NCBI GenBank assembly: GCA_965248435.1
Contig: OZ252100.1
Coordinates: forward strand, 576,001-640,000
DNA: 64,000 nt
Direction: 5' to 3'
Origin: Candidatus Latescibacterota bacterium
GTDB lineage: Bacteria; Latescibacterota; UBA2968; GCA-2709665
The stretch's first letter is position 1. Every line of letters starts with the position of its first letter. Of the stretch, positions 6,714 through 56,718 are shown one piece after another. The notes under the pieces were generated by a model that saw only the letters and a program-made list of their open reading frames with translations, was not told where the DNA came from and ran no database searches. A program made the translations under genes and the position numbers.

Positions 6714-6715
6714 AC

Positions 6716-7165
6716 TCAATTTCCCCTAAGTCCCATCTTTGCCAGGAGTTCAGAAAGCAAATATCCGTGCTCCCCGTACAGTTCAGGAACGCCGTCGGGC
6801 AGCCGCACCCAGTAGAGGTCGAATGTGATCGGTTCGCCACCGTCGCTCCGGTGTCGCTCTACGTTATGCCATCGATCTGGCGCCTCCTCTTCGCAGACAA
6901 GGTGAAAGAAGTGGCGGTTGTGTACCTCTTCAATGGAGTAGTCCCTCATGTCGCGGCGTTGTGTGCCGAGAAGGCCTACCTTTTTCAGTCGCTTCAGTCC
7001 CGTCTCCTCCTCCGCCTCCCGCATGACCGCCTCCTCGAGCCGTTCACCCTCTTCGACGGTACCTGCGGGAACCTGCACACCTGCGTCCGGATTCCCCAGA
7101 TGCTGAAAAACGAGTAGATCGCTACCTCTTGTGATGTATGCGAATACTTTGTCTCTTTGGATCAT
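6716..7165 (-). CDS. NUDIX hydrolase
   Basis: Nudix box GTVEEGERLEEAVMREAEEETGL. Confidence 0.9.
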   Translation of the reverse strand: MIQRDKVFAYITRGSDLLVFQHLGNPDAGVQVPAGTVEEGERLEEAVMREAEEETGLKRLKKVGLLGTQRRDMRDYSIEEVHNRHFFHLVCEEEAPDRWHNVERHRSDGGEPITFDLYWVRLPDGVPELYGEHGYLLSELLAKMGLRGN

Positions 7166-7367
7166 CCAGTCCCCCTAACGACGATTGGATTCCCTTAAGC
7201 TCTCCTTTACAGCTTTCAAGACAAGGTCGGATATTTGAAGGAGGAGTGTCACTCACGTTGAAGTGTAGCCAATTATGCAAGGTGCTCAAACGAAAAACCC
7301 CGCACGAGCGCTCGAGTCTCGGACGGGTTAGATTTTTGCGATTCCTTGTAGGGATCAACGATCCGGC

Positions 7368-7955
7368 CTAATCTCCCCCTGACCCCGACACGTCTACTTC
7401 AATGACCCTGGGAGAATCTGCCTCGACGCCGATCGGACCGGGAACCTCACCCCAGAATGTCTCACTTGCACTCAGACGGTAGACCACGTTTTGATCTGCG
7501 AGGTATACGGTCGGTGAAGGTTCGATCCGCACGTAGCTCTTGCTCCAGTCACTCCGGGAAGGCCCAAAGACAAAGGCGCCCACTGTATTCCCGTTTCCAT
7601 CAAACAGCGTCAACTGCAGGCCCGATGCGTCGTCGACAGAATAGGTCGGCCATTTGTTCAAATCCTCAGTCATCACGGTGCTTCGTTTCACCGACAAGAC
7701 GTTGTCGAACAGACCATCGATTCGATCCTGCCGAATTTGCAGCGTATCGTGTCCGGAAATATGCCAGGCGCCGGCCTTCTTGATCAACTCCAACTTCTCC
7801 TCTGCCCGTTCAATCGACACCCTGGCGACCTCCGCCCTGTCCCCCGAAAAAATGCTGTCGATCTGCGTCGTAACCCGGCGTTTCGAGTACTGAACGTAGA
7901 TCAGTCCGACTCCGAGCAGCACGATCGCCGCGATCCAGATGGCCCCTTTACCCAT
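7368..7955 (-). CDS. DUF4340-like membrane-anchored protein
   Basis: N-terminal TM helix and a beta-rich periplasmic domain. Lies directly after gldG, the usual position for this family. Confidence 0.7.
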   Translation of the reverse strand: MGKGAIWIAAIVLLGVGLIYVQYSKRRVTTQIDSIFSGDRAEVARVSIERAEEKLELIKKAGAWHISGHDTLQIRQDRIDGLFDNVLSVKRSTVMTEDLNKWPTYSVDDASGLQLTLFDGNGNTVGAFVFGPSRSDWSKSYVRIEPSPTVYLADQNVVYRLSASETFWGEVPGPIGVEADSPRVIEVDVSGSGGD

Positions 7956-11391: not shown

Positions 11392-12471
11392 ATGAAATTC
11401 GTGATCCGCGCCGGGGGAATCGGCACACGGCTCTGGCCGTATAGTCGCAGAGATCGTCCCAAGCAGTTCCACGCATTCGTGGGGGGGCGCAGCATGATCC
11501 AGGAAGCCGTCGCGCGCATCGCTTCCCTCGCTGGCCTGGACGACCTCTACGTCTCCACTGGAAAAGACACAGTCACGGCCGTACGTGAGCACCTGCCGGA
11601 CCTCCCGGAAGCCCACCTCTTTGAAGAACCAGCGGTGCGCAACACGGGCCCCGCTGTTGGTCTGGAGAGCGTGCTGCTTGAGACTAGATATCCCGGCTGC
11701 ACTGTTGCAAGCCTCGGTTCCGACCACCACATCGGGAAGCCGGATGAGTTCTGCCGTCTTCTCCAGGTCGCAGAGACAGCCCTTGAAGAGATGCCGGAGA
11801 CCCTCATCACCGTAGGCGTGAAACCAACGAGAATCGACACCGGCCTTGGATACATAAAAAAAGGAGAGCGACTCCGCACGATATTGGACGAACCGGTCTT
11901 CGCGGTTGAGGGATTTACCGAGAAGCCGGATGAGGATCTGGCCCGGGAATACGTCAAGAGCGGCGATTACCTGTGGAACAGCAACATGTTCGTTTGGAAG
12001 GCCCGAACCATTCTGGATCTCTTTTCCAGGTTCGAACCGGAAATCTACGATATCCTGATGCGAATCCAACGGGAGGCGGAGCGGGGAGACGCAAGCGACG
12101 TGATCGCAAGCGAATATCCCAAAATGAAGGAAATCCCGATCGACAACGCCATTCTGGAACGCGCGCAATCCCTTGCCACCCTGGAGGCCGACATCGATTG
12201 GAGTGACATTGGAACCTGGGGCGCCCTGGCTGAGGTGCTGCCAACAGACGGCGAAGGCAACCTCCTCTCAGGAGACGTCCTTGCCCTCGACGCGCACCAG
12301 GTGACCGCATATGCCTCCGCTGGAAAACTAATCGCACTGATCGATGTGGAAAATCTTGTCGTGATCGATACCCCGGACGCACTCCTGATCTGTCCGAGAG
12401 ATCAAACACAGCGAGTCAGAGACGTGGTCACCCGACTACAGCAGGAACGGGACCGCGAAAAGTACACATGA
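11392..12471 (+). CDS. manC: Mannose-1-phosphate guanylyltransferase
   Basis: AGGIGTRLWPYSR..PKQF, RNTGPA, FTEKP and WSDIGTW motifs. Confidence 0.9.
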   Translation: MKFVIRAGGIGTRLWPYSRRDRPKQFHAFVGGRSMIQEAVARIASLAGLDDLYVSTGKDTVTAVREHLPDLPEAHLFEEPAVRNTGPAVGLESVLLETRYPGCTVASLGSDHHIGKPDEFCRLLQVAETALEEMPETLITVGVKPTRIDTGLGYIKKGERLRTILDEPVFAVEGFTEKPDEDLAREYVKSGDYLWNSNMFVWKARTILDLFSRFEPEIYDILMRIQREAERGDASDVIASEYPKMKEIPIDNAILERAQSLATLEADIDWSDIGTWGALAEVLPTDGEGNLLSGDVLALDAHQVTAYASAGKLIALIDVENLVVIDTPDALLICPRDQTQRVRDVVTRLQQERDREKYT

Positions 12472-12519
12472 TGGTGTTTCGATGCAACCTTCAAGAGATG
12501 GCGATCTGGGAGCGCGAAT

Positions 12520-13263
12520 TCATTCATGCTCTGCGACGATAGCGGTCCGATAGTAGCTGCAGAAGCCCGTGATCGGGCAAATGTCGCACGATGGGCTTCT
12601 CGCCGTGCAAACCCCCCTTCCGAAATCGATCAGATCCAGATGAAACCCTCTGGCCCTTCCTTTGGGAATCAGTTCGGCAAGCTCAAGGTGAGCCCTATCC
12701 CTCCCGACGCGCTCACCGATCACGCCTACACGGCGTAACACTCTGTGCACGTGCGTATCGACTGCGCACATATCCCGGTTGAACGCGAAAGCCAGGACGA
12801 TATAGGCCGTCTTAAGTCCGATGCCCCTGTGGCTGGTCAATAACTCGACAGCCTCCTCATCCTCGAGACCTTCCACAAAACCGAGATCAAAATCTCCTCT
12901 TTCCCTTTCCAGCCACCTGAGGAACGAGCGAATCGTCCGGGCCTTCTGATCGGTCAGGCCGGCTACCCGAATGGCACGCTTGAGCCTCCGGAGATCGGCA
13001 CGTGCGACTTCAGGCCAGGTCGAGAACCGCTCTTTGAGCCCGTCGAACGCCCGGTCCCGATTACGGTCCGTTGTATTCTGCGAGAGGATCGTTCTGATCA
13101 ATGCATCCAGAGGATCACGGGCCTCGCGCTTTGGATTCCACGCAACTCCGCCGTAGATTCGATCGAGGACCCGAAACACATTCCGTACGAGCTCCCGGCG
13201 ACACCGTCTTTCGTCGGGATCGGACCGTGGCGGACTAGCTCGATCAGGACCGGGGGTTCGCAC
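12520..13263 (-). CDS. nth: Endonuclease III (HhH-GPD DNA glycosylase)
   Basis: ILSQNTTD, GIGLKTA and VDTHVHR motifs; Fe-S motif CTARSPSCDICPITGFC. Start assumed at the GTG overlapping the PilZ stop. Confidence 0.85.
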   Translation of the reverse strand: MRTPGPDRASPPRSDPDERRCRRELVRNVFRVLDRIYGGVAWNPKREARDPLDALIRTILSQNTTDRNRDRAFDGLKERFSTWPEVARADLRRLKRAIRVAGLTDQKARTIRSFLRWLERERGDFDLGFVEGLEDEEAVELLTSHRGIGLKTAYIVLAFAFNRDMCAVDTHVHRVLRRVGVIGERVGRDRAHLELAELIPKGRARGFHLDLIDFGRGVCTARSPSCDICPITGFCSYYRTAIVAEHE

Positions 13264-13640
13264 TAGCTGCCGTCCCTCTCCTCGATCTCCTGAACCAGCT
13301 TCAACAGGCGCCCTCGTGCATCCCCGGGATATTCGCAGAACATCCACCCGCTCGTCCGAGTCCCTTCCTCATCGGAGTCGGTCCAGATAGGCTCGGCGAC
13401 AAGTTGTATGGGTTCCTCTCCCTCGCGAGGGACGAGGCTCACTCTGACCTCCCGATCTCCACCCGTCAAATCGGCGATCGTCGGGACCTCTGAAAGATCG
13501 ATCCTCATGCCGGTCTCACTCACATCCTTGGTCCTGCACATCCGCTCATCCCCCTCGCGGACCGTTATCAGAACCAGCAAACGCACTGAAAAGCGCGTAT
13601 TCTTGCGGCGCCTCCTCCAAAACCTGCCAAGCAAGCCCAC
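13263..13640 (-). CDS. PilZ domain protein (c-di-GMP binding)
   Basis: RxxxR (RKNTR) and DxSxxG (DVSETG) motifs. Confidence 0.8.
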   Translation of the reverse strand: MGLLGRFWRRRRKNTRFSVRLLVLITVREGDERMCRTKDVSETGMRIDLSEVPTIADLTGGDREVRVSLVPREGEEPIQLVAEPIWTDSDEEGTRTSGWMFCEYPGDARGRLLKLVQEIEERDGS

Positions 13641-13908
13641 CTTCGGTCCTCGCAATTGAGTCTTCAGATCGCAACTTGGTTTTTGCTATCTGCCGGAAAC
13701 GATCGTGACAGCCCTCGGAGGGGCAAATAGGAAGCTTCGGGGTTTAAGAAATCATACTTCAGCGGGATAGACAAGGAATTTTCTCGCCAGATCACGGCAA
13801 AACCGGGCTCTGCCCGACCGGGTTGCGGGGAGGGCATCCTTGACTTCCAAGGCTCTTAAGTCAGGGTGTTTGAAGTATTTGTCCCATTTCTCTAGCTTTG
13901 GTTCCGGC

Positions 13909-13937
13909 TTGACACACCCGGTGCTTATCCCGATATT
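13909..13937 (+). promoter_or_regulatory. Putative sigma70 promoter for the tetR gene
   Basis: TTGACA-N17-GATATT, about 50 bp upstream of ATG 13990. Confidence 0.5.
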
Positions 13938-13989
13938 TTCTGCAGCACCTAATCGCTCGACCTGATTTCTTGACCTATCAACTTATATT

Positions 13990-14659
13990 ATGACCTCTAA
14001 ACGACTTCCACACGAGGAACGACGCAACCAGATCATCGAGGTCGCGATGGAGCTCTTCGCGAACAAGGGGTTCAAGGGAGCGACTACACGCTCGATCGCA
14101 AAGGCTGCCGGAGTCTCTGAAGCCATTATTTTCCGCCATTTTGAAACAAAGGAAGACCTCTACGACGCCATCATCACCTATAACGGTAGAAAGGCGCATC
14201 AAGACCTGGGAAGGAGATGCGGCTTCCCTGGAGAAAGCGGGAGATTTGAGGACGATCCTCCGGGAATTCGCACAATTCTTCATCGAGCGCAACAGACGGG
14301 ATCACACCTTTATCCGGCTCATGATGTACAGTGCATTGGAGGACCACAAATTCCGGGAAAAATTCAAGGAGATCTACCGGTCCACCCACTTTGCGCGCAT
14401 TCGGCAGACCATCGAAACCGGCATCGAAGAGGGACTTTACAGGCCGGTAGATCCTCGACTCACGACCCGTTCCTTTTTCTGGGCTTTGCTCCACTACTGC
14501 ATCGCCCGATTCGTGGTCGCGAAACCCCGCCTGAACTCGTCCACCGATGAGGAAATGGTCGACAACCTGGTTGATATCTTTGTGCACGGCCTGGAACGCC
14601 ACGGCTCAGAGCACGGTATCGGTTCACCCGCGTTCGAAAATGAGACATTCCAGGAGTAA
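13990..14659 (+). CDS. TetR/AcrR family regulator, frameshifted by an extra A at about 14182
   Basis: [32 protein letters not shown]. The C-terminal domain continues in the 14141..14659 frame. Confidence 0.85.
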
Positions 14660-43604: not shown

Positions 43605-44090
43605 TTACCCAACCTTCGCGATCGACTGGTGGCGGATCTTCTCCTGGAGTTTCAGGACCCCTTCCAGGAGCGACTCGGGACGCGGAGGACAACCTGGAAC
43701 GTAGACATCCACGGGGATGACCCGGTCCACACCTTTTAGCACGTGATATCCGTGCTGCCAGTAGGGCCCTCCAGAAGTGGCACAGCACCCCATAGAGATC
43801 ACATACCGGGGCTCGGCCATCTGGTCGAAGAGTTTCTTCACGCGCGTGGCCATCTTGAGCGTGACCGTACCGGCCACGATCATCAAATCTGACTGCCGGG
43901 GTGTTGCCCTTGGAATAAGCCCAAAGCGGTCCCAATCGTAGCGGGAAGCCCCCGTCGCCATCATCTCGATCGCGCAGCAGGCAAGCCCGAACGTCATCGG
44001 CCACAGGGAAGAAAGCCTGGCCCAGTTGATGAAGTAATCCAGCGACGTTACGATTACGTTGTCGTTAAAACGGCCTTCAACGACGCCCAA
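43605..44090 (-). CDS. nuoB: NADH-quinone oxidoreductase subunit B
   Basis: [17 protein letters not shown] and VPGCPPRPE motifs. Confidence 0.95.
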
Positions 44091-44833: not shown

Positions 44834-44865
44834 AACTTGACAATAAAGTATAGTTAAGTTATGTT
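44834..44865 (+). promoter_or_regulatory. suf promoter overlapped by an imperfect palindrome (candidate Rrf2 operator)
   Basis: TTGACA(44837)-N17-TATGTT; inverted repeat AACTTGAC-N11-GTTAAGTT. Confidence 0.65.
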
Positions 44866-44954
44866 TGGAGCTTGGAGGAGGGGCTTATTCACACGCTAAA
44901 CGTAAGAAAAGTTCCGCTTCTTCGCCACACATACTTTGCAGAAAGGGCCACTTG

Positions 44955-46421
44955 ATGAGCGGCGAAGTGAAACAACTGGAAGAACTCGCGGAGAGCGACT
45001 ACAAATACGGGTTCGTAACCAATATCGAGCAAGATTCGGCGCCGCCTGGGCTGAACGAAGACACCATCCGATTCATCTCCGCAAAGAAGAATGAGCCGGA
45101 ATGGCTCGTGGAATGGCGCCTTAAGGCCTATCACCACTGGCTCAAGATGGACGATCCGACGCGACGGCCCAAGAGCCGGCAGTGGGCCAGGGTCACCTAT
45201 CCCGACATCGACTATCAGGACATCATCTACTATTCCGCACCGAAAAAGGGGGGTGGACCGAGCAGCCTGGACGAGGTGGACCCGGAGCTCCTCTTGACTT
45301 ACGAGAAGCTGGGCATCCCACTCGAAGAACAGAAAATGCTGTCCGGCGTTGCGGTAGACGCCGTCTTCGACTCCGTTTCCGTGGCCACAACGTTCCAGGG
45401 AAAACTGGCCGAGGAGGGCATCATCTTCGGTCCCTTCTCCGAAGCCGTCCAGGAACATCCCGACCTTGTGCGGAAATACCTCGGGTCCGTGGTTCCCTAC
45501 AACGACAACTTTTTCGCTGCATTGAACTCCGCGGTGTTCACCGACGGTTCATTCTGCTACATCCCCAAAGGGGTGCGTTGCCCGATGGAGCTTTCCACCT
45601 ATTTTCGGATCAACGCATCCAAGACGGGCCAGTTCGAGCGGACCCTCATCATCGCCGACGAAGGCAGCTACGTCAGCTACCTCGAGGGATGTACCGCGCC
45701 GATGCGGGACGAAAACCAGCTCCACGCCGCCGTCGTCGAGCTGGTGACCCACGACGACGCGCAGATAAAGTATTCCACCATCCAGAACTGGTATCCCGGC
45801 AATGCAGAGGGTAAGGGTGGTATCTATAACTTCGTGACCAAGCGAGGCGCGTGCCGGGGTGCAAACTCCAAGATCTCCTGGACACAGGTCGAAACCGGCT
45901 CGGCCATCACCTGGAAGTATCCCAGCTGTATCCTTCAAGGCGATAACTCTGTCGGCGAATTTTATTCGATAGCCGTAACCACCGGGCATCAACAGGCCGA
46001 CACCGGGACCAAGATGATCCACATCGGCAAGAACACCAGAAGCACGGTCATATCGAAGGGGATTTCCGGCATCTACGGCCAGAATACCTACCGGGGCGGC
46101 GTAAAAGTCCTCAAGGGCGCAGACCGGGCAAGGAACTTTACACAGTGTGACTCGCTGCTCATCGGCGATCGCTGCGGAGCGCACACCTTCCCTTACATCG
46201 AGGTCAAGAATCCGACGGCGCAGGTGGAGCACGAGGCCTCCACATCCAAGATCGGCGAGGATCAGATCTTCTACTGTAACCAGCGAGGAATCCCGACCGA
46301 AGACGCCGTTTCTATGATCGTCAACGGCTTCTGCAAGGAGGTCCTTGCAGAGCTGCCCATGGAGTTCGCGGTCGAAGCCCAGAAACTGCTCGGCATCAGT
46401 CTCGAGGGCAGCGTCGGCTAA
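44955..46421 (+). CDS. sufB: Fe-S cluster assembly protein SufB
   Basis: [21 protein letters not shown] and EHEASTSKI motifs. Confidence 0.97.
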
Positions 46422-46438
46422 AACGAGTGGAGGAACGG

Positions 46439-47212
46439 ATGCTCGAAGTCAAGAATCTGCACGCAAGCGTCGAGGGCAATGAGATCCTTCGCGGCGTTAA
46501 CCTCAGCGTCGGCCGAGGCGAAATCCACGCGATTATGGGCCCGAACGGGTCAGGCAAGTCTACCCTGGCGCAGGTCCTGGCAGGACACGAGGCGTATGAA
46601 GTCACTGAAGGCGAGGTCATCTATCAGGGCGAAAACCTGCTGGAGCTTAACGCCGACGAGCGAGCACGGAAGGGGATCTTCATGGCCTTCCAGTACCCCG
46701 TGGAGATCCCGGGCGTCAACAGCGCCTATTTCCTCAAGGCGGCCCTGAACGAGGTCCGAAAAGCGCGGGGTGAGGAGGAACTGGATGCCCTCGATTTCCT
46801 GTCGCTGTCCAGGGAAAGGCTCAAACTGGTCGACATGGACGAAAGCCTTCTTAAGCGCTCCCTCAACGAGGGTTTTTCTGGGGGTGAAAAGAAGCGCAAC
46901 GAGATCTTTCAGATGGCGGTCCTGGAGCCCAAACTTGCGATTATGGACGAAACCGACTCCGGACTCGACATCGATGCGCTCAAGATCGTCGCGAACGGGG
47001 TGAACACCCTTCACGCACAGCAACCCAAAAGTTCGGTCGTCGTGGTGACCCACTATCAGAGACTGCTCGACTACATCGTTCCCGACCAGGTTCACGTCTT
47101 ACTCAACGGCCGAATCGTCAGATCGGGCGGGAAGGACCTGGCTCTGCAGCTGGAGGAAAAAGGTTACGATTGGATTCGGGAAGCGCACGAGGCAGAAGCC
47201 GTCACCGTATAG
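46439..47212 (+). CDS. sufC: Fe-S cluster assembly ATPase SufC
   Basis: [19 protein letters not shown] and [12 protein letters not shown] motifs. Confidence 0.97.
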
Positions 47213-47227
47213 GGGAACAGCCTAACC

Positions 47228-48568
47228 ATGGCACAGCCCGCACCGGACGCAAAGGATGCCTACCTTTCTGCCTACAGGGAATTCGAGAAGGGTCTGAACG
47301 GAGCCAGCCGCTCGCCCATCGACAGACTGCGCAGGCAGGCTGTCGATCGGTTTGAAAGCCTCGAATTTCCGACGACGGCGGATGAGGCTTGGCGATACAC
47401 GAACGTGGCTCCGATTGTAAGCACCTCGTTCAAGCAGGTGATGAGCGGCACTCCGCCTCGGCTGTCTGCGAAGCAGATCAAGCCCTTCACGTTCAACGGG
47501 ACCCAATTGGTCTTCGTGAACGGCCAGTACGCTCCGGAGCTTTCTTCGCTCGAAAATCTGCCCCGTGGAGCCAAGGCTGTTTGCCTAAAGGCGGCTATCG
47601 ACTCCGACGATGACCTCCTGTCAAGGCACCTCGGTCAACACGCGGACTATGAAGCGCAGCCCTTTACCGCGCTCAACACTGCATTCGTCCACGACGGGGC
47701 GCTTATCCATGTTCCAGGCAACACGGTCGTCGAAGCACCGATCAACGTCCTCTTTGTTTCGACCGCGAACGGACAACCGACCGTCTCCCACCCGCGCTGC
47801 CTCGTTCTTGCCGAATCCCACAGCCAGGTTTCGATCGTCGAAACCTACGCGGGACTTGGGACAACCCCCTACTTCACGAATGCGGTTACCGAGATCGTAG
47901 CGGGTGAAAACGCGGTTGTCGACCACTATAAGCTCGTCCTGGAAGGCGACGAGGCCTTCCACGTCGCCACAACACAAACCTGCCAGGAGCACGCCGCCAA
48001 CGTCTCCACTCACACGATCTCCCTGGGGGGACGTCTCGTCCGCAACGACGTTAACGCCCGCCTGTCCGGCGAGGGAGGCGAGGCCACAGTGAATGGTTTC
48101 TACCTGCTCGACGGGGCGCAGCACGTGGATAATCACACGTTGATCGAGCACGTCGAACCTCACTGCACCAGCCACGAGCTCTTCAAGGGCATCCTGGACG
48201 GAAAATCCAAAGGGGTTTTTCGCGGAAAGATTTTCGTCCATCAGAAGGCACAAAAGACAGACGCCTACCAGACCAACCAGAACCTGCTCCTCTCCGGGGA
48301 TGCCGGAGTCACCGCCAAGCCGCAGCTCGAAATCTACGCAGACGACGTCAAGTGTTCTCACGGGGCCACGATCGGCCAGATGGATGAAAATGCCATCTTC
48401 TATCTCAGGTCTCGAGGTCTCGGCCCGGAAGCTGCCCGACAGATCCTGATCCAGGCATTTGCGGACGAAATACTCGACAGGATTCGTGTGGCTCCGGTCA
48501 GGGCGCGTCTAGGCGGTTGGGTCAGAGAAAAATTCGAACGCCTCCCGGGGCTGAGAAAGAAGCAGTGA
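47228..48568 (+). CDS. sufD: Fe-S cluster assembly protein SufD
   Basis: EAWRYT and KPQLEIYADDVKCSHGAT motifs. Confidence 0.95.
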   Translation: MAQPAPDAKDAYLSAYREFEKGLNGASRSPIDRLRRQAVDRFESLEFPTTADEAWRYTNVAPIVSTSFKQVMSGTPPRLSAKQIKPFTFNGTQLVFVNGQYAPELSSLENLPRGAKAVCLKAAIDSDDDLLSRHLGQHADYEAQPFTALNTAFVHDGALIHVPGNTVVEAPINVLFVSTANGQPTVSHPRCLVLAESHSQVSIVETYAGLGTTPYFTNAVTEIVAGENAVVDHYKLVLEGDEAFHVATTQTCQEHAANVSTHTISLGGRLVRNDVNARLSGEGGEATVNGFYLLDGAQHVDNHTLIEHVEPHCTSHELFKGILDGKSKGVFRGKIFVHQKAQKTDAYQTNQNLLLSGDAGVTAKPQLEIYADDVKCSHGATIGQMDENAIFYLRSRGLGPEAARQILIQAFADEILDRIRVAPVRARLGGWVREKFERLPGLRKKQ

Positions 48569-48572
48569 TGCG

Positions 48573-49850
48573 ATGAGCCTACCTTCCTACATCCTTACTG
48601 AAGATCCTTCCTGTCCGCTCGTCGAAAGGGCGGGGCCGTTCGACCCGGAAGCAGTCCGTTCTGATTTTCCAGTCCTGAAGCAGATCGTGAACGGCAAACC
48701 GCTCGTCTACCTGGACAATGCGGCGACGGCCCAGAAGCCGCGTCTCGTCATCGATGCACTCCAAAGCTACTACTCGTCTGAAAACGCCAACGTCCATCGG
48801 GGGGTTCACCACCTGAGCCAGGTCGCGACCGATTCCTACGAAGGCGCGCGACACAAAGTTCGACAGTTCCTGAATGCCGCACACGACAAAGAAATCGTCT
48901 TCGTGCGGGGAACGACCGAAGGAATCAATCTCGTGGCACAGACCTTCGGCAGGCAGAACGTGGGGCGGGGGGATGAAATCCTCATCTCCGAAATGGAGCA
49001 CCATTCCAACATCGTTCCCTGGCAGATTCTCTGTGAAGAAAATGGGGCGACCCTGCGCGTCATTCCCATTAATGATCGTGGGGAATTGCTGATGGAGGAG
49101 TACGAGAAGCTGCTCACCCCACGGACGAAGCTCGTTTCGGTCGCACACGTTTCAAATGTCCTCGGCACCCTCAATCCCGTTTACGACATCGTGAACCTCG
49201 CCCATGAGTGCGGTATCCCAGTGCTCTTTGACGGCGCGCAGGCCGTTCCCCATCTGGAGGTGGACGTCCAGGACCTGGATTGCGATTTCTACGTCTTCTC
49301 GAGCCACAAACTTTACGGCCCTACGGGAATCGGCGTACTCTATGGAAAGGCCGAACACCTTGAGGCCATGCCCCCCTATCAAGGTGGGGGAAGCATGATT
49401 CGATCTGTTACGTTCGAAAAAACAACCTATGCCGACCCCCCTAACAAGTTCGAGGCCGGCACGCCTCCAATCTCGGGCGGAATCGGGCTTGGGGCGGCCA
49501 TCGATTACCTGGCACAGATCGGTTTGGACCACGCCGCAGCCCATGAAGCGGACCTCCTGTCCTACGCCACGCAGGTCCTCTCAGAGATACCGGGCCTCAG
49601 ACTCATCGGTACGGCACGGGAAAAAGTGAGCGTGCTTTCGTTCGTACTCGAGGGAGTGCACCCCCACGATATCGGGACTATTCTTGATCAGCAAGGCGTC
49701 GCTGTCCGTGCCGGTCATCACTGCGCGCAGCCTTTGATGCGGCGCTACGGGATTGACGCGACAACCCGCGCAGCCATCGCGTGCTACAACACCAAAAGTG
49801 ACATCGATGCCATGGTCCGCGGTCTCTACAAAGTGCTGGAGATATTCTGA
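48573..49850 (+). CDS. sufS: Cysteine desulfurase SufS
   Basis: YLDNAATAQKP, SSHKLYGPTG (PLP Lys) and RAGHHCAQP motifs. Confidence 0.96.
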   Translation: MSLPSYILTEDPSCPLVERAGPFDPEAVRSDFPVLKQIVNGKPLVYLDNAATAQKPRLVIDALQSYYSSENANVHRGVHHLSQVATDSYEGARHKVRQFLNAAHDKEIVFVRGTTEGINLVAQTFGRQNVGRGDEILISEMEHHSNIVPWQILCEENGATLRVIPINDRGELLMEEYEKLLTPRTKLVSVAHVSNVLGTLNPVYDIVNLAHECGIPVLFDGAQAVPHLEVDVQDLDCDFYVFSSHKLYGPTGIGVLYGKAEHLEAMPPYQGGGSMIRSVTFEKTTYADPPNKFEAGTPPISGGIGLGAAIDYLAQIGLDHAAAHEADLLSYATQVLSEIPGLRLIGTAREKVSVLSFVLEGVHPHDIGTILDQQGVAVRAGHHCAQPLMRRYGIDATTRAAIACYNTKSDIDAMVRGLYKVLEIF

Positions 49851-49851
49851 C

Positions 49852-50298
49852 ATGCTAGACTTGCGTGAGCTCTACCAACAGGTGATCCTGGATCACAACA
49901 AGAGCCCTCGCAACTTTAGAGAGCTTGTGGATGCCAATCGGTCGGCGGAGGGGTATAACCCCCTCTGTGGCGACAAATTTAGCGTCTATTTAAAGCTTGG
50001 AGATGGCCGGATCGACGATATTACGTTTCAAGGCTCGGGCTGTGCGATCTCGAAGGCCTCCGCCTCGATGATGACTTCCCTCTTAAAGGGACAGAGCGTG
50101 GAGGAAGCCGAAGCGCTCTTCGGAAAATTTCACGACCTGGTGGCGGGGGATACCTCCCCCGACCTCGAGGAGGTAGGCAAGCTTGCCGTGTTTGCAGGTG
50201 TGAAAGAATTCCCGACTCGCATCAAATGTGCAACCCTGGCGTGGCACACGCTGAAAGCAGCGCTCCGGGGAAAAGGGGATCACGTCACGACTGAATAG
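49852..50298 (+). CDS. sufU: SUF system NifU-like protein SufU
   Basis: LYQQVILDH, NPLCGD, GCAISKAS and RIKCATLAW motifs. Confidence 0.95.
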   Translation: MLDLRELYQQVILDHNKSPRNFRELVDANRSAEGYNPLCGDKFSVYLKLGDGRIDDITFQGSGCAISKASASMMTSLLKGQSVEEAEALFGKFHDLVAGDTSPDLEEVGKLAVFAGVKEFPTRIKCATLAWHTLKAALRGKGDHVTTE

Positions 50299-50316
50299 AA
50301 ATAGGAGGCAATCCTG

Positions 50317-50856
50317 GTGCTTAGAAGATTCCTAAATCGAGCCTTTCAGAGTACGATGAACCGACTATTCAATCTTCCGGCCGAGGCTCCGAAGCAGACC
50401 GAAACACCTCAAGCGGCGGATCCGAAAACGAAAGAGGAAGAGACGAGTCCGGTTAACGTCCAGGCCCTGACCTCCTACGGGGACCAGAAGTCGGAGGAGG
50501 TTGTAGAGCGCACGGCACAGCTAGAAGCCTCAGCTGAGCCGGGCGTGGACGCCACCGACGTGGAAAAGAAGATTGTGGAGATTATTGGCACGGTCTACGA
50601 CCCCGAGATTCCAGTAAACATCTATGAACTCGGACTGATCTACGAAACCCGTATCGAGCCATCTGGAATGGCGCACGTCAAGATGACCCTTACCTCTCCG
50701 AACTGCCCGGCCGCGGCCACACTCCCCGCGGAGGTAGAGAGCAAGGTTCGCAGCGTTCCTGGCGTCAGAGATGTCGTTCTGGACCTGGTCTTCGATCCAC
50801 CCTGGAATCCCGATATGATGTCCGAGGCCGCGAAACTCGAACTTGGCATGCTGTAA
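50317..50856 (+). CDS. sufT: SufT / MIP18 (DUF59) Fe-S assembly protein
   Basis: VYDPEIPVNIYELGLIY, MTLTSPNCP and FDPPW motifs; disordered N-terminal extension. Confidence 0.85.
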   Translation: MLRRFLNRAFQSTMNRLFNLPAEAPKQTETPQAADPKTKEEETSPVNVQALTSYGDQKSEEVVERTAQLEASAEPGVDATDVEKKIVEIIGTVYDPEIPVNIYELGLIYETRIEPSGMAHVKMTLTSPNCPAAATLPAEVESKVRSVPGVRDVVLDLVFDPPWNPDMMSEAAKLELGML

Positions 50857-50889
50857 CAACCCGATTTTGGCACAGAACGGGGGCGGGAA

Positions 50890-51375
50890 ATGAAGCTGAG
50901 TGCTCAGGAAGAATACGGACTGCGGTGCCTCATTCAGATTGGTCGGAACGAACTCGAGGTCGGTGGTGACCTCACGATTGCGGAAATCAGCCAGGCGGAG
51001 GGGCTTTCCATCCCGAACGTGGCGAAGCTGATGCGCATCTTACGGCTAGGAGGCTTCGTGGATAGCGCCAGGGGCCAGGCCGGTGGCTACAGGCTTTCAA
51101 GACCCGCCGATCAGATCGTCGTGGGTGACGTCCTTGCGGTTCTGGGAGGACGTCTCTTTGGCCCGAACTTCTGCGATGAGCACACCGGAGTCGCCGAGCT
51201 CTGCACGCATTCTGTAGACTGCTCCGTCCGCTCGCTTTGGAACGCCGTGCAGTCCGTAATCGACCAAATGCTCGGCCGCGTTACACTCAAAGATCTGCTG
51301 GTTCGCGAGGAAGATGAACTGAGCGGATGCTTTCGGGATATGGCCGACGATGTTCTCCGGGTCGTTCCCAATTGA
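50890..51375 (+). CDS. Rrf2-family transcriptional regulator with three Cys Fe-S ligands
   Basis: EEYGLRCL, SARGQAGGYRLSR and FCDEH...LCTHSVDCSVRSLW motifs. Confidence 0.9.
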   Translation: MKLSAQEEYGLRCLIQIGRNELEVGGDLTIAEISQAEGLSIPNVAKLMRILRLGGFVDSARGQAGGYRLSRPADQIVVGDVLAVLGGRLFGPNFCDEHTGVAELCTHSVDCSVRSLWNAVQSVIDQMLGRVTLKDLLVREEDELSGCFRDMADDVLRVVPN

Positions 51376-51436
51376 CGCACTGCCTGATTCTTCGTATCAT
51401 ACTTACACTGCGATGATTCGATAACTGGAGATCGAA

Positions 51437-51958
51437 ATGGGCTTGGAGACGAACCTAGGCGAGAACGTAATTACCACCACGCTGGACAAGATGATCAATT
51501 GGGCTCGGAAGAGCTCGCTCTGGCCGATGCCCTTCGGCACAGCGTGCTGTGCCATCGAAATGATGGCTACGCTTTCTGGACGCTTCGACATGGCGCGTTT
51601 CGGGGCCGAGGCTGTCCGCTTCTCGCCGAGACAGTCGGATCTTCTGATCGTGTCAGGCCGAGTCTGTATCAAAATGATGCCTGTGCTGAAAAAGATCTAC
51701 GACCAGATGCCCGATCCAAAGTGGGTGATTTCGATGGGGGCCTGCGCCTCTTCCGGGGGGGTCTTCAACACATATACGATGGTTCAGGGTGTGGATCAAT
51801 TTCTTCCCGTCGATGTCTACGTCCCGGGTTGCCCACCTCGGCCGGAAGATCTGCTGTACGCGCTGATGAAAATTCAAGATAAGATAGACCGAGAACATCC
51901 AACTAAAAGTGTCGAACAGGGCAGTCAGGGCAAAGCTGCCTTACACGCCGGAGGATAA
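51437..51958 (+). CDS. nuoB: Second, stand-alone NuoB paralog
   Basis: [27 protein letters not shown] and VPGCPPRPE motifs. Confidence 0.92.
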
Positions 51959-51960
51959 CA

Positions 51961-52542
51961 ATGGTAACCGTTACCGAGGTTGCACAGAAAGAAGTCGTCA
52001 GGCTCATGGAAGACCAGGAGGCCAAGTTGAACGGTGTCAGGGTGAAGGCCGAGGCCACGTCTCCGCTCCAGGCGAACTACCGGCTGTCTTTCCTCGGTGA
52101 GGGCCAGGAAACCCCCGAGGACGAGGTCATCCCGTTCGAGGGCTTCAATGTTTACATCGATTCAGAAAGCTCACCCTTCTGTCAGGACATCACGCTCGAC
52201 TTCGTGGACGGCTTGACCGGAAAGGGTTTCAAAATTGACAACCCGAACCGGGTGCCACCCCACTTGAAGGGCACGGCGGCCGAAAAGGTTCAGCAGATCA
52301 TCGACGACAAAATTAATCCAAGCGTGGCCTCCCACGGAGGGTTCGTGTCTTTGATAGACGTGAAGGACAACGTGGCTTATGTCCAGTTCGGAGGGGGCTG
52401 CCAGGGGTGTGGTATGGTCGACGTCACCCTCAAGCAAGGGGTTGAAGTCCTGATCAAAGAGGCCATACCGGAGATAGAGCAAATCATGGACATCACCGAC
52501 CACGCAGACGGAACAAATCCCTATTACCAGCCTTCGAAGTAA
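51961..52542 (+). CDS. nfuA: NfuA-type Fe-S carrier (degenerate A-type domain plus NifU-C domain)
   Basis: VTVTEVA...FKIDNPN N-domain; INPSVASHGG, GGCQGC and DITDHADGTNPYY motifs. Confidence 0.9.
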   Translation: MVTVTEVAQKEVVRLMEDQEAKLNGVRVKAEATSPLQANYRLSFLGEGQETPEDEVIPFEGFNVYIDSESSPFCQDITLDFVDGLTGKGFKIDNPNRVPPHLKGTAAEKVQQIIDDKINPSVASHGGFVSLIDVKDNVAYVQFGGGCQGCGMVDVTLKQGVEVLIKEAIPEIEQIMDITDHADGTNPYYQPSK

Positions 52543-52545
52543 GGG

Positions 52546-53982
52546 ATGCACACCAGAATCCGGAACAACGACGGCCCAGCTCTGAAAGTCGTTCTCATTT
52601 CGACTTACGAGTTGGGCCGTCAGCCTTTTGGCCTGGCCTCCCCCGCTGCCTGGCTGAGGCGTGCGGGGATGGAGGTCGCCACCGCCGACCTCTCAGTTGG
52701 AGATCTGCCCGAAGCAGCAGTAATCGCAGCTGATCTTGTTGCGTTCTACATCCCCATGTACACCGCAACCCGCCTTGCCGTGCCGGTCGTGGAACGCGTA
52801 AAGGCTGCAAACCCCCATACGCACATCTGCTTTTATGGTCTTTACGCCTCCGTAAACGAAATCTATCTACGAAATCTGGGCGCCCAAACCATCCTCGGGG
52901 GAGAGTTCGAAGCAGGTCTGCTCCACCTCGCCAACTCACTTCAGGAATCGCGAGTCATCCACGAAAGGCAGACGGGGCCGGTCGTCTCTCTAGAGCGGCA
53001 GGATTTCCTGATCCCCGACAGAAGCGATCTTCCCCCGCTCTCCAGGTATGCCCGGCTCAAGGACGTGGACGATTCAGAGAAACAGGTCGGCTATGTAGAG
53101 GCCAGCCGAGGCTGCAAACACCTCTGCCGACATTGTCCGGTCGTACCGGTTTACGCTGGGAAATTCAGGATCGTCCAGCCTGAAATCGTGTTGGAGGACA
53201 TCCGCCGGCAGGTGTCCGCGGGGGCAGAGCACATCACGTTCGGAGATCCCGACTTTTTTAACGGGATCGGTCACGCCCTTCCTCTGGTCGAGACCCTTCA
53301 AAGGGAATTCCCAGATCTGACCTACGATGTGACGATCAAGGTCGAGCACCTCCTCCAGCACGCGAAGCATATCCCAACCCTTCGGGAAACCGGATGCAAA
53401 ATCATCACGACGGCCGTGGAATCGCTCGACGATACCGTCCTTTTCAAGTTGAACAAAGGCCACACCCGCGCAGACTTTATCCAGGCGCTCCAGATCTGCC
53501 GAGAGCATCTCATCACTTTGAATCCCACATTCATTCCGTTTTCTCCGTGGACCACGGCTGAGGGATATGCAGATCTCCTGGAAACCCTCAGCGATCTGGA
53601 ACTGATCGAAGAGGTCGCACCCGTCCAGTTGGCCATTCGCCTCCTGATACCTGAAGGGTCTCTGCTCCTGGAGCTAGCTGACATTCAGGAAGTGATTGCG
53701 CCTTTCCATCCGCAAAGCCTGAGTTACCCCTGGAAGCACGCAGAGCCGCGCGTCGACCAGCTTCAGGAAGTCATCAGCGGGATCATCAAAAGAGGTTTAG
53801 CCGAAAAGGCGTCCAGGAAAGAGATCTTCGGAGCGGTCTGGGAAGAGGCAAACACTTTGGCGGACCGCGCTCCGCCCGTTTATGACCCGGCGCCCCAACC
53901 GTCCCTTGCTACAATCCCCTACCTGACCGAGCCATGGTATTGCTGAGCGGAACCGACCGAAGAGCAGTTTGCTCTTACGTAG
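52546..53982 (+). CDS. CUAEP-tail radical SAM selenoprotein (TGA 53944-53946 read as Sec)
   Basis: B12-binding-like N-domain and CKHLCRHC radical SAM motif. Tail reads YLTEPWYC-U-AEPTEEQFALT to TAG at 53980-53982. Confidence 0.88.
53958..53979 (+). promoter_or_regulatory. Candidate bacterial SECIS hairpin
   Basis: CG-AAGAGCA-GTT-TGCTCTT-A-CG stem-loop beginning 11 nt after the UGA. Confidence 0.7.
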
Positions 53983-54020
53983 ATGTGCAGGCGATGTTGT
54001 GATTCATAGAAAGGCAACCG

Positions 54021-54359
54021 ATGACGATTCAAGAATTGGCAGCAAGGTTTCCAGAGATCCCGGAAGACCTGCACGACGAACCTCAGCTCGCTCGATTTGG
54101 AGAGGCCTTTGGCGAACAGCTTCAGGTCGCGCAGAACCCGGGCGCCTGCTCTTCCGAATACTCGGCAGGCAATCATTATTATCTCAAACTGATCGGGCCG
54201 CTCAGGATCTACATGTACGGTCTGTCGAGTCGCGAAAGGGCACTCTCGCAACTCCAGGAACTGCTCGACCAGTATCAGACTGACCCGGATGGCTTTCTTG
54301 CCGGACTGGTCCCGCAGGACGCCGCCGAACAAGAGCTCAGAGGTCCGGGCTGCCAATGA
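54021..54359 (+). CDS. Hypothetical 112-aa protein with a C-terminal GPGCQ
   Basis: AGAAAGG RBS-like sequence and ATG start; co-directional with the radical SAM gene; two Cys residues. Confidence 0.75.
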   Translation: MTIQELAARFPEIPEDLHDEPQLARFGEAFGEQLQVAQNPGACSSEYSAGNHYYLKLIGPLRIYMYGLSSRERALSQLQELLDQYQTDPDGFLAGLVPQDAAEQELRGPGCQ

Positions 54360-54366
54360 CAACGAC

Positions 54367-55608
54367 TCACCGGTCTGAAATACCGATTCCGAGCATCCCA
54401 TAGGACTTCCTCAATGCGACCTCCACCCGCTCGGGCGAACCCTCCCGTGCGAAGATAAACCCGAGGTATTTCGATCCTTCGGGCAGGGGTTCGACCCGCT
54501 CGCCGATCGGGATCGTCACGGCGAGATCTTCGATCCCCGGAACCGCTCTCGCTGACTCCAGTCCCGTCACTTTTTCGAGCCGCCCCTTCGCTGGAACAGG
54601 GATCATCATCACGCCGGACGCGTCCGAACGGGACTGCACGGCGCTTTCGATCTCCAGCCCCAATGCGTGTCGAATGATCAACGTCTCCAGCGACATCCCC
54701 GCCCCGAACTTCAAGGTCCTCGAGCACAGCCCACCGATTGAACGGCCTGCGACCTCCAAGATCCACACACCCTTTGAGTTGACTCTGAGTTCCGCGTGGA
54801 CTGGTCCCTCTTCGAGGCCCAGCGCCGAAGAGGCCTCTACAGTCGCTTCCCGTATGTCCTCCTGAAGGCCGGCGTCCAGCCGGGACGGTGTAATGTAGAA
54901 GGTTTCCTCGAAGTAGGGACCTTCGAGCGGGTCTGGTTTGTCAAACAGGGCAAGGACGTGGAGCTCCCCCCGGATCAACAATCCCTCGAGCGCGACCTCG
55001 CTCCCCGGGATAAAATCTTCAACCAGGATTTCATTCGCTGGCAATTCACCTTTTCCCTTCACATCATCTCTTCGAAGAAACGCCGTGATCCGCTCAAAGG
55101 CCGACACAAAAGAACCCGGATCATCCGCTCGAATCACGCCGCGGCTGGCGCTGAGGAAGATCGGCTTCAAGACACACGGGAATCGAATCTCCTCGGCGAC
55201 TTCGTCCGGATTAGTCTCAATTGAAAAAGGCCTGAACCCAGGAGAGGGCAGGCCTTTCGCCGCGAATTTCTGTCTCATCAGAAGCTTGTTTCGCGATGCC
55301 TGAACGGAGGAAGCGGAATTGTGGCGCAACCCCAGGGCCTCGTTCGCGACGGACGCGAGCACGACCGAGTCGTCATCCACACCCAGGACTGCGTCGAGCT
55401 GATATCGTTCGGCGAACTCCAGAATCTCCTGGGCTGCTACCCCGGGTCTCGAAAAATCCAACGCGATCGTCTTCCCCGGAGTCAGGTCGGCCAGGGCCTG
55501 GCGGCGGTCGGATCCCACGACCACCTCGACTTCAAGCGCCTCCGCCGCCTTCATGAAATCGGGCGCTCGATACGTGGTTGTAGGCAGTAGGAGCAGGACG
55601 CGGCCCAT
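54367..55608 (-). CDS. ATP-grasp domain ligase
   Basis: RNKLLMRQ, PCVLKPIFLSASRGVIRAD, LVEDFIPG, GPVHAELR and LEVAGRSIGG motifs. Confidence 0.9.
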   Translation of the reverse strand: MGRVLLLLPTTTYRAPDFMKAAEALEVEVVVGSDRRQALADLTPGKTIALDFSRPGVAAQEILEFAERYQLDAVLGVDDDSVVLASVANEALGLRHNSASSVQASRNKLLMRQKFAAKGLPSPGFRPFSIETNPDEVAEEIRFPCVLKPIFLSASRGVIRADDPGSFVSAFERITAFLRRDDVKGKGELPANEILVEDFIPGSEVALEGLLIRGELHVLALFDKPDPLEGPYFEETFYITPSRLDAGLQEDIREATVEASSALGLEEGPVHAELRVNSKGVWILEVAGRSIGGLCSRTLKFGAGMSLETLIIRHALGLEIESAVQSRSDASGVMMIPVPAKGRLEKVTGLESARAVPGIEDLAVTIPIGERVEPLPEGSKYLGFIFAREGSPERVEVALRKSYGMLGIGISDR

Positions 55609-55622
55609 TGAGGTCGATCCGC

Positions 55623-55997
55623 CTATCCTCGATCAACTCCGGCCGGTTCCTCTGTCTTCTTCTTTTCCCGTTTCTCTCGAAACTCTCTGACCTTTTTGAT
55701 CACATCGGGGGCCAGTTCCAGGAGCTTTCGAAAGGACATATCACCCTCCTGAAGCGGAAGGAGCTGCGCCTTACCGTCGCGAATCACGATAAAGGCGACC
55801 GGTTCGACTGAGCCGCCTCCCCCGGTTCCGCTCCCCCGGTCCCCTCTGTTCCCCCCGGCACCAAAACCGAAGGAAATCTTGGAAACGGGAACGATCACCG
55901 TCTCCCCGACAACCATCGGTTCTCCGATCACGGTTTCCGTCTTAACGATCTGCCGAAACTCCTGCATCATCGTCTTGATCAAGTCCTCGACCGACAT
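55623..55997 (-). CDS. YtfJ/GerW family protein
   Basis: ETVIGEP, IVPVSKISFGFGAGG and GGGGSVEPVAFIVI motifs. Confidence 0.88.
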   Translation of the reverse strand: MSVEDLIKTMMQEFRQIVKTETVIGEPMVVGETVIVPVSKISFGFGAGGNRGDRGSGTGGGGSVEPVAFIVIRDGKAQLLPLQEGDMSFRKLLELAPDVIKKVREFREKREKKKTEEPAGVDRG

Positions 55998-56019
55998 GCC
56001 ACCTCCTTCTTAACGGCTG

Positions 56020-56718
56020 TCAATTCGTTCTGCCGATCCTTTTATGTCTCCATCGATTCCAGTAGTAGGATAAGCCGACCCCGCCCGCTTGACAAGCCAG
56101 ACAGGCCACTGCCCACAAGATTCTGTGCAAATAAACGGCCAGCTCCACTTCGGCTTCCCCTTCCAGCCGTTCCTGATCGAAATCGGGGGCCAGAGCCAAA
56201 TCTACTCCGGGTCCCGTCGCGCCTGAGATCGCCAACGAGTAGCCGAATACTTGACCCGTGGTGACCGGATCTGAAGCCCCGAACACGACATCACACGACA
56301 GCCTGCGGACTCGAAATCCGCCGATCAGGCGCATCAGGAACCGCAAGACAGATCTTCTGAGTCTCTTGAAAAAGTACCAAATCGGACCCGCGGCGAACAG
56401 CCTCTGTTTCAGACCGGGTGTCTCCTGCTCTGGCTCGATCTCGGCCGGTTCAGCGGTTTCAACGGGCTCAACCGGCTCGGGAACCGGCTTCTTTCCACGC
56501 TTCAGATGGAAATTCCAGGGCGCCCAACGCCAAACCATCGGGCCCAAACGTAGTCTCTTCTCCTCATAGATGACCTGGATTCCGCAGAGTCCGTTCCACG
56601 GCCGCACCCATCCTCGAAGCAGACCGGCCTCCGGTGAGTATTGCCCCCATCCTCCCAAGCGGACCGGGAGGAAGAGCAGCAGGAGAATCGCGATAAAGAG
56701 GAGAAGAATCACTGTCAC
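56020..56718 (-). CDS. DUF2953 (YtfI-like) membrane protein
   Basis: N-terminal TM helix, FGASDPVTTG and PDF motifs; adjacent to the ytfJ-like gene. Confidence 0.7.
   Translation of the reverse strand: MTVILLLFIAILLLLFLPVRLGGWGQYSPEAGLLRGWVRPWNGLCGIQVIYEEKRLRLGPMVWRWAPWNFHLKRGKKPVPEPVEPVETAEPAEIEPEQETPGLKQRLFAAGPIWYFFKRLRRSVLRFLMRLIGGFRVRRLSCDVVFGASDPVTTGQVFGYSLAISGATGPGVDLALAPDFDQERLEGEAEVELAVYLHRILWAVACLACQAGGVGLSYYWNRWRHKRIGRTN

Follow-up and report, generated by a model that had tools for sequence, protein, structure and literature searches.

What does a radical S-adenosylmethionine (SAM) gene encode when its open reading frame (ORF) ends at a UGA codon directly behind a cysteine codon and the same frame runs on beyond it, and what might the resulting protein do with the residues so gained? 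The question arises in a 64,000-nucleotide stretch of the genome of a Candidatus Latescibacterota bacterium (GenBank assembly GCA_965248435.1, contig OZ252100.1, positions 576,001 to 640,000 of the forward strand), hereafter termed the window, to which all coordinates refer unless another contig or locus is named. An initial annotation, made from the letters and a list of ORFs, had proposed a hidden selenoprotein with a cysteine-selenocysteine (Cys-Sec) pair near its C-terminus that binds a metal or metalloid, As(III) for example. In our analysis the gene reads as a genuine selenoprotein and a plain member of the curated protein family NF040546, and the explanation that we favor overall, in which this identity is nearly certain and the mechanism proposed below is tentative, has in our estimate a probability of roughly 0.85. 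The interpretation first offered was right on the identity of the gene and is unproven on its mechanism.

Recoding of the UGA codon

Past the TGA the frame continues, as described initially, with the codons GCG GAA CCG ACC GAA GAG CAG TTT GCT CTT ACG (AEPTEEQFALT) up to an in-frame TAG, and the read-through product counts 478 residues with the C-terminus ...EPWYCUAEPTEEQFALT (Table 1). This product scores 628.5 bits on the NF040546 profile (cut-off 500; E-value 6.6e-189), its residues 15-476 aligning to profile positions 1-467 of 468, and it carries both signatures of the family, the CX3CX2C motif and a C-[U/C]-A-E-P tail, here ...EPWYC-U-AEP. The radical SAM family with a CUAEP or CCAEP tail that the initial annotation had invoked thus corresponds to NF040546. 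Within the lineage, 41 genomes were searched (the source genome and 40 relatives): the cut-off was exceeded in 22, which are all 22 genomes of the source's taxonomic family, and each of these matches, that of the source genome included, holds exactly one in-frame TGA, whereas none of the 19 genomes of the sister family reached the cut-off. Similarity searching supplied 80 further loci, of which 9 have TGA as the second codon of the pair and 71 have TGC or TGT, and [A/S]EP always comes next. A pattern scan for the Sec form returned at least 120 further genomes, and among the matches listed the phyla include Acidobacteriota, Chloroflexota, Actinomycetota, Pseudomonadota, Calditrichota and Eisenbacteria.

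The machinery for Sec insertion is encoded elsewhere in the source genome, where selA, selB, selD and the tRNA-Sec gene (selC) all score above their cut-offs and are clustered at C1:1062487-1067069. Judging from its own single in-frame TGA, selD (C1:1062705-1063625) is itself a gene for a Sec-containing SelD. The initial annotation had made its case depend on two observations, the C-termini of homologues and the presence of these four genes: the homologues have TGA or a cysteine codon followed by [A/S]EP rather than an end at WYC, and the machinery is complete.

The hairpin that had been noticed behind the UGA is as first described (Table 1). Its lower stem, made of the pairs C53958-G53979 and G53959-C53978, begins 11 nt 3' of the UGA, and is separated by the bulged A53977 from an upper stem of seven pairs (53960-53966 with 53970-53976) closed by the GUU loop at 53967-53969; we take the spacing to resemble that of the fdhF element of E. 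coli. The folding energy of the single sequence was unremarkable (z = -0.75 for a 91-nt stretch, 48 of 200 shuffles being at least as stable), and a search of positions 53880-54060 against Rfam with E-values up to 10 gave two chance-level matches and no family of selenocysteine insertion sequences (SECIS). However, the hairpin covaries. When 139 distinct Sec-form segments of 45 nt, each beginning at the TGA, were aligned, the helix fell in the same columns throughout (16-22 with 28-34), and 81.3% of the cells were paired as compared to 71.6 +/- 0.8% in shuffles, none of 500 shuffles reaching the observed value. Five of the seven pairs show changes on both sides, 133 cells in all, and sliding the 3' partner by one to three columns as a control lowered the pairing to 54% or less. 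Most of the apparently unpaired cells are explained by a register shifted by one base, which was found in 30 of the 139 segments. The loop residue G53967 (column 24) is invariant (139/139), and two bases on, at column 26, there is a U in 135 of 139. A contiguous stem of at least 6 bp is present in 120 of the 139 Sec forms vs 21 of 69 Cys forms. Across the stem the Sec forms encode 48 different hexapeptides, 38 of which keep a stem of at least 6 bp, and it is therefore the RNA that is conserved, not the peptide. We conclude that the UGA is almost certainly recoded by SelB and tRNA-Sec via the SECIS hairpin that the initial annotation had postulated, giving a 478-residue enzyme with a Rossmann-like domain, a CX3CX2C cluster site and a Cys-Sec arm, which belongs to a conserved module of iron-sulfur (Fe-S) helper, enzyme and ligase.

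As a call, the selenoprotein is not new, since the NCBIfam name of the family already contains the word "(seleno)protein", and one sentence in Haft and Gwadz (2022, bioRxiv 10.1101/2022.07.06.499078) lists the family as an uncharacterised CU selenoprotein; "hidden" was for both reasons an overstatement. A review of prokaryotic selenoproteomes that appeared in Applied and Environmental Microbiology (AEM) in 2026 has in its main text none of the terms "NF040546", "CCAEP" or "tail radical". The call is an ordinary one and illustrates a known failure of annotation at Sec codons, the truncation by standard gene callers of which the initial annotation had warned. At an E-value of 1e-30 or better it is matched by 576 clusters at 50% identity, which makes NF040546 a large family. 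Among the 150 best cluster representatives from a library of 1.8 billion proteins, 43 carry a W[FY]CC..P tail, 38 end exactly at W[FY]C, one has an ArsL-type CCxxC tail and 68 have no motif, 72 of the 150 being shorter than 420 residues; 38 of the 81 tail-bearing representatives have therefore lost the tail to a stop at W[FY]C.

Sec and Cys alternate readily at the second position of the pair. A FastTree tree built from 187 distinct sequences requires no fewer than 12 changes of state, in a sample that is biased because the Sec forms were fetched by pattern and the Cys forms by similarity. Among five genomes with a Cys form, selA gave no match in two, was intact in one and was fragmented in two, and since two of these genomes are without a selA match selenium would not be essential to the reaction. 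Within the mechanism proposed below, Sec may then be a catalytic improvement on Cys at the second position, optional and not a requirement, a view that we hold tentatively. In the two genomes with a fragmented selA (G041 and G043, loci L060 and L063) the gene is spread over several frames, which could reflect decay of the Sec machinery or an assembly error.

Architecture of the enzyme and its relation to ArsL

The Pfam Radical_SAM domain (PF04055) matches residues 185-332 with 53 bits, and the B12-binding domain PF02310 matches residues 16-123 with 20.4 bits, below its cut-off of 32.1. In an alignment of 58 sequences (A2) that are 32-55% identical to the query, the only conserved cysteines are C190, C194 and C197 of the cluster motif, which are nearly invariant, and C466 with U/C467 next to it; the EPW[YF]C motif is invariant at E462 and W464. 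Auxiliary clusters of the MiaB, RimO or LipA type would call for at least three further conserved cysteines, and because C466 and U/C467 are the sole ones beyond the triad, an auxiliary Fe-S cluster is unlikely in this enzyme. The AlphaFold2 model has a mean predicted local distance difference test (pLDDT) score of 93.8 and a predicted template-modeling (pTM) score of 0.92; confidence is low in the linker of residues 441-460 (block means 74 and 69) and fairly good, at 84-88, in the tail, residues 461-478. The nearest solved fold is AprD4 (6fd2; TM score 0.67, E-value 4.9e-17), followed by TsrM, OxsB and MiaB, at 14-18% identity. With AprD4, TsrM and OxsB, which are radical SAM enzymes with a B12-type Rossmann N-domain, the protein shares a two-domain architecture, although the identity is only that low; AprD4 itself, we believe, does not use cobalamin. 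A sequence search of the PDB gave a single weak match (9ccb, E-value 4.4e-5). As no ArsL or NF040546-family structure is among the PDB matches, the fold search informs architecture only.

The second-best family of the protein is ArsL (profile NF040542, 282.6 bits, cut-off 450), in agreement with the relationship that the initial annotation had named. Positions 2-403 of the 423 in the ArsL profile align to residues 16-406, and because this is nearly the whole core, the two families would differ mainly in their tails. A representative of ArsL type (P0142, tail RCCIKC), which scores 477 bits on NF040542, is 34% identical to the protein of the window. The hallmarks of ArsL itself were not found: there is no RCCLKC (CCxxC) motif and no third cysteine in the tail, and neither arsM nor arsQ of the arsQML cluster lies within about 10 kb. 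A literature search retrieved the string "RCCLKC" in ArsL papers only. ArsL splits SAM's S-C(gamma) bond, giving methylthioadenosine and a 3-amino-3-carboxypropyl (ACP) species, and it is the one CX3CX2C radical SAM enzyme that has been shown to make ACP and not the 5'-deoxyadenosyl radical; its Cys-rich tail binds As(III), and removal of the tail abolishes the product but not SAM cleavage (Yao et al. 2024). According to Serrano et al. (2026), all three tail cysteines of ArsL bind arsenic, PaArsL co-purifies with arsenic, and an organometallic Fe-ACP species, attacked by the tail-bound atom, has been proposed. The enzyme of the window thus resembles ArsL in a core that is homologous over its whole length, in a canonical CX3CX2C motif and in a C-terminal tail bearing cysteine, the part that binds the acceptor in ArsL. 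It differs in having a C-U/C-A-E-P tail with two chalcogens instead of a CCxxC tail with three, and in its partners, a ligase and an Fe-S helper in place of arsM and arsQ.

Two other known systems invite comparison through their tails. The pair recalls thioredoxin reductase, whose C-terminal redox tail is GCUG in mammals and SCCS in insects: in both cases an adjacent Cys-Sec or Cys-Cys pair sits on a mobile C-terminal arm, with natural interchange of Sec and Cys. However, in thioredoxin reductase the pair is penultimate and works with FAD and a dithiol center, whereas here it lies 12 residues from the end, is followed by AEP and belongs to a radical SAM enzyme. The family TIGR04167, which we take to be that of the arsenosugar enzyme ArsS, also comprises radical SAM proteins with a Cys or Sec outside the cluster motif that is thought to hold the atom attacked by a carbon radical. 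It is another family, with a GxxU motif, and ArsS uses the 5'-deoxyadenosyl radical; we set it apart by description only. In the 2026 AEM review, the ArsS-type radical SAM (seleno)protein TIGR04167 appears as "Radical SAM domain protein, GxxU".

Conserved neighbors and MerB-like domains

The context of the gene was compared in 20 loci of the taxonomic family (1.5-kb flanks), in a first sample of 80 loci (8-kb flanks), three of which duplicate family loci, and in a second sample of 77 loci (9-kb flanks). An L-amino-acid ligase is a neighbor in 19 of the 20 family loci, 63 of the 80 and 52 of the 77. NfuA stands directly upstream in all 20 family loci, in 8/80 and in 15/77, the lineages concerned in the second sample being Latescibacterota, SAR324, Eisenbacteria and Alphaproteobacteria, and YggX (PF04362) is a neighbor in 54 of 81 loci of the first sample, the window included, and in 41 of 77 of the second. 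From these counts the gene belongs to a conserved module, in which the radical SAM enzyme is accompanied by an L-amino-acid ligase and by an Fe-S helper, the helper being NfuA here and YggX in most other lineages. The NuoB paralogue (18/20 family, 2/80 first sample, 1/77 second sample) and the Rrf2 regulator (19/20, 4/80 and 0/77) are largely confined to the source's taxonomic family, as is the link to the SUF operon, found in three first-sample loci (3/80), all from that family. Within NF040546, the gene of the window is itself not different; what distinguishes its lineage from other NF040546 loci is the position at the 3' end of the SUF operon, behind the NuoB paralogue and NfuA, and the ligase gene, which is convergent here, whereas in the first sample it usually follows the radical SAM gene directly and in the same direction. 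The other frequent annotated neighbors are housekeeping genes, for glucose-6-phosphate dehydrogenase, glucokinase, a HAD hydrolase, Lgt and a permease.

Table 1. Features around the radical SAM selenoprotein gene, in window coordinates
Feature	Position	Strand	Basis and remarks
SUF operon: sufB, C, D, S, U, SufT-like gene and Rrf2-family regulator	44865..51375	+	SufU, SufT-like and Rrf2 by family profile; sufB, C, D and S named from translations, without a profile scan
Rrf2-family regulator	50890-51375	+	Family profile
Solitary NuoB paralogue ([4Fe-4S] subunit type)	51437..51958	+	TIGR01957, 235 bits; 2 nt upstream of nfuA
NfuA-type Fe-S carrier	51961..52542	+	TIGR03341, 158 bits (cut-off 269.35); Pfam NifU and Fe-S_biosyn
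Radical SAM selenoprotein, coding sequence	52546..53982	+	478 codons plus stop; Sec467 = UGA; translated with TGA = U
ORF as ended at the UGA	52546-53946	+	Stops at ...LTEPWYC-TGA
CX3CX2C motif (CKHLCRHC; C190, C194, C197)	53113..53136	+	Ligates the radical SAM [4Fe-4S] cluster; read from sequence
Cys466-Sec467 pair (TGC TGA)	53941..53946	+	TGC 53941-53943, TGA 53944-53946
SECIS hairpin	53958..53979	+	2-bp lower stem, bulged A53977, 7-bp upper stem, GUU loop; fold and covariation
True stop codon TAG	53980..53982	+	In frame, closes the read-through tail
112-codon ORF between radical SAM and ligase genes	54021..54359	+	Status uncertain
L-amino-acid-ligase-type ATP-grasp enzyme	54367..55608	-	Pfam ATP-grasp_4, LAL_C2 and ATPgrasp_N; convergent with the radical SAM gene

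Within about 10 kb of the gene the window holds the SUF genes, Rrf2, the NuoB-like gene, NfuA, the ligase, a YtfJ gene, a DUF2953 gene, a PGM/PMM-family gene and a dehydratase, and no ars or mer gene was seen there. The nfuA stop codon lies 3 nt before the start codon of the radical SAM gene. The solitary NuoB paralogue is 57% identical to the nuoB at 43605-44090, which adjoins nuoA, and across the taxonomic family it is conserved at 88-94% identity, as compared to 72-84% for NfuA. It is possibly in one transcription unit with nfuA, and it might supply the radical SAM enzyme with electrons as a dedicated [4Fe-4S] carrier. A promoter-like site, recognized by consensus match only, lies at 51372-51400. 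Among the named NCBIfam families, BacD and DdaF come closest to the ligase, although neither score approaches its cut-off. Just beyond the ligase gene and on the same strand, genes for a "sporulation" protein of the YtfJ/GerW family and for a DUF2953 protein occupy 55623-56718 (-); to our knowledge the Latescibacterota are not spore-formers. The 112-codon ORF between the two genes of the module had no match in Pfam or NCBIfam and no usable Atlas match, and it recurs in 2 of the 20 family loci, those of its own genus (77% identity), and in none of 80 loci elsewhere. Being confined to one genus and without a family match, it was dropped from the conserved module. An antisense ORF of 160 codons (53919-54401) overlaps it.

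Records in which the enzyme is joined to another protein fell into two kinds. Three records that seem to join the radical SAM enzyme to the ligase (P0157, P0158 and P0160) were rejected because the match stops at profile positions 371-431 of 468 and the tail is gone; in such records the radical SAM part falls 37-97 positions short of the end of the profile, one (P0057) has Arg-rich text between the domains that looks out of frame, and frameshifts in the gene calling of metagenome assemblies, not genuine fusion, are the probable cause. The other kind carries a MerB-like domain. In P0005 (695 residues) a complete CCAEP-tail enzyme is extended by a Pro-rich linker and then a MerB domain (PF03243, 54.7 bits), and five distinct proteins of this type were found (P0005 and P0152-P0155), with 47-64% identity to P0005 over the region of tail plus MerB. 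Because the four that were scanned score 614-623 bits on NF040546 and cover the profile through position 467, these fusions read as true members of the family and not as truncated gene calls. In P0005 the extra domain can be aligned with MerB2 (5c17, E-value 1.9e-15) and with MerB (3f2g and 1s6l), and P0005, the sole fusion aligned, keeps the motifs WCA.D and FC...F.S, which presumably correspond to the catalytic Cys96, Asp99 and Cys159 of MerB. The protein of the window is without such a domain, and MerB breaks C-Hg bonds whereas enzymes of ArsL type make C-X bonds; the resemblance to the mer system, in which metal is handed over between Cys pairs, lies in the MerB-like domain that follows the CCAEP tail in the five fusions.

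In two actinomycete genomes, moreover, MerB-like genes lie 2-5 kb from the radical SAM gene. In Nonomuraea (L081, MerB-like region 12077-14579) the latter has as its neighbors a ligase of GCS2 type, an aminotransferase and a pair of MerB-like ORFs, of which one was matched by Pfam and the other by tblastn only. In Actinomadura (L245) it follows a pyridoxal phosphate (PLP) decarboxylase and is near a MerB-like gene (6324-7415, 87 bits), an aminotransferase, a tryptophan halogenase and a TDO-like gene. The stretch L245:3080-11589 looks like a secondary-metabolite cluster, unlike the housekeeping context elsewhere. Actinomycete loci have a GCS2 ligase or a PaaK-like adenylating enzyme in place of the ATP-grasp ligase, with PLP aminotransferases and a decarboxylase added; in P0159 a PaaK-like adenylating enzyme is fused to a Sec-truncated family member, and a Mycobacteriales locus has both as neighbors. 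Species-representative genomes scanned with the fusion protein gave no full-length fusion, the matches ending by about residue 506. The link of MerB-like fusions and neighbors to CCAEP-tail enzymes is a new lead, and it suggests a thiophilic atom handed between Cys pairs.

What the Cys-Sec arm may do

We propose, tentatively and by analogy with ArsL, that the Cys-Sec arm would present a soft acceptor atom (a chalcogen, a metalloid or a thiophilic metal) to an Fe-ACP species of ArsL type. The product would be a gamma-substituted 2-aminobutyrate, which the ligase would condense with another amino acid to give a dipeptide, and NfuA or YggX would service the labile cluster and so keep the radical SAM enzyme loaded. 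An amino-acid product is fitting because ligases, aminotransferases and a decarboxylase accompany the enzyme in various contexts, and chemistry between carbon and a soft atom is favored because of the MerB-like fusions, which give circumstantial support to a soft atom carried on the tail. Arsenic as the acceptor atom is poorly supported, because the pair offers two ligands and not three, because there is no ars context and because the ArsL score is below cut-off; the example of As(III) given in the initial annotation finds no contextual support either within about 10 kb or among the annotated neighbor clusters.

Several observations weigh against this mechanism. Whether SAM is cleaved to ACP or to the usual 5'-deoxyadenosyl radical is not readable from sequence, and in Serrano et al. 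(2026) what steers ArsL toward ACP is given as not known. The pair provides two ligands, whereas ArsL uses three cysteines for arsenic. The MerB link is limited to actinomycete members: the source genome gave no match to PF03243, in a weak search in which control genomes gave no match either, and the MerB-like protein of Actinomadura used as a query retrieved only three loci, two of them without a radical SAM gene. No gene for transport of, resistance to or methylation of a metal or metalloid was seen near the gene in the window, and none was found among the annotated conserved neighbor clusters. Finally, the literature search returned, for the whole family, the one sentence of Haft and Gwadz (2022) and no experiment on any member.

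The main competitor, which we regard as somewhat unlikely, is that Cys-Sec forms a redox-active selenenylsulfide arm like that of thioredoxin reductase, which carries no substrate atom but supplies a hydrogen atom or electrons that quench or reduce a radical intermediate, or re-reduces a group in the active site, the substrate being organic. In favor of such an arm are the free interchange of Sec and Cys at one of two neighboring residues in a flexible C-terminal arm, the presence of two chalcogen ligands with no other conserved cysteine, and a context of housekeeping and Fe-S stress genes without metal handling; most known Sec enzymes are, as a matter of general knowledge, redox enzymes. However, the nearest characterized relative, ArsL, uses its Cys tail to hold the acceptor atom and not for redox, the MerB-like fusions and neighbors point to carbon-metal chemistry, the pair is not penultimate, since the conserved AEP and at least eight more residues follow it, and no dedicated disulfide reductase was noted among the annotated neighbors.

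In an improbable alternative the enzyme would act on a peptide, protein or cofactor through the canonical 5'-deoxyadenosyl radical, its tail would be no more than a lid or an aid to recognizing the substrate, and the ATP-grasp enzyme would work on the same macromolecule. The closest folds (AprD4 at a TM score of 0.67, TsrM, OxsB and MiaB) are indeed canonical or B12-type, and some ATP-grasp enzymes are generally known to modify peptides. Against it, no small precursor ORF is conserved, the 112-codon ORF being confined to one genus, the ligase has the LAL_C2 domain of free-amino-acid ligases, and the PLP aminotransferases and decarboxylase of the actinomycete loci act on free amino acids.

That the enzyme is simply an isoenzyme of ArsL, its pair binding As(III) and its product hydroxyarsinothricin or a close arsenical, is very improbable. 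The alignment of the ArsL profile over nearly the whole core at 282.6 bits and the 34% identity to a protein scoring 477 bits on that profile speak for it, but the score of the window's protein does not reach 450, the RCCLKC motif is missing and with it one of the three arsenic ligands, no arsM, arsQ or other ars gene lies within about 10 kb or among the annotated conserved neighbors, and a gene present in 22 of 22 genomes of its taxonomic family, and widespread in soil phyla beside housekeeping genes, is unlike an arsenic island. Last, a UGA that is a true stop, or that arose from TGC by error, with a frame and a hairpin behind it by mere coincidence, has next to no probability, since, in spite of the unremarkable folding energy and the lack of an Rfam match, the TGA is kept in all 22 family genomes and in at least 120 more across many phyla, AEP is conserved downstream, the genome has the full Sec machinery and the hairpin covaries while the encoded peptide varies.

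We return to the proposal of a tail-bound acceptor atom. In its most far-reaching form, which we consider doubtful, a swinging Cys-Sec arm would carry a soft atom (a selenium or sulfur chalcogenide, or a thiophilic metal or metalloid) into an Fe-alkyl intermediate of ArsL type, so that this soil family would make an unseen heteroatom-substituted homoalanine that the ligase turns into a dipeptide. If this is true, the MerB-like fusions of actinomycetes would make and break carbon-metal bonds on one polypeptide, and biological organometal(loid) chemistry would extend well beyond arsenic, in a family that is large and vertically inherited. The interest of the locus lies in this chemistry, in a large family that has an amino-acid ligase and Fe-S helper proteins as its close genomic companions, and the mode of SAM cleavage together with the identity of the tail-bound atom would tell what the product is and whether non-canonical ACP transfer is a widespread class of reaction.

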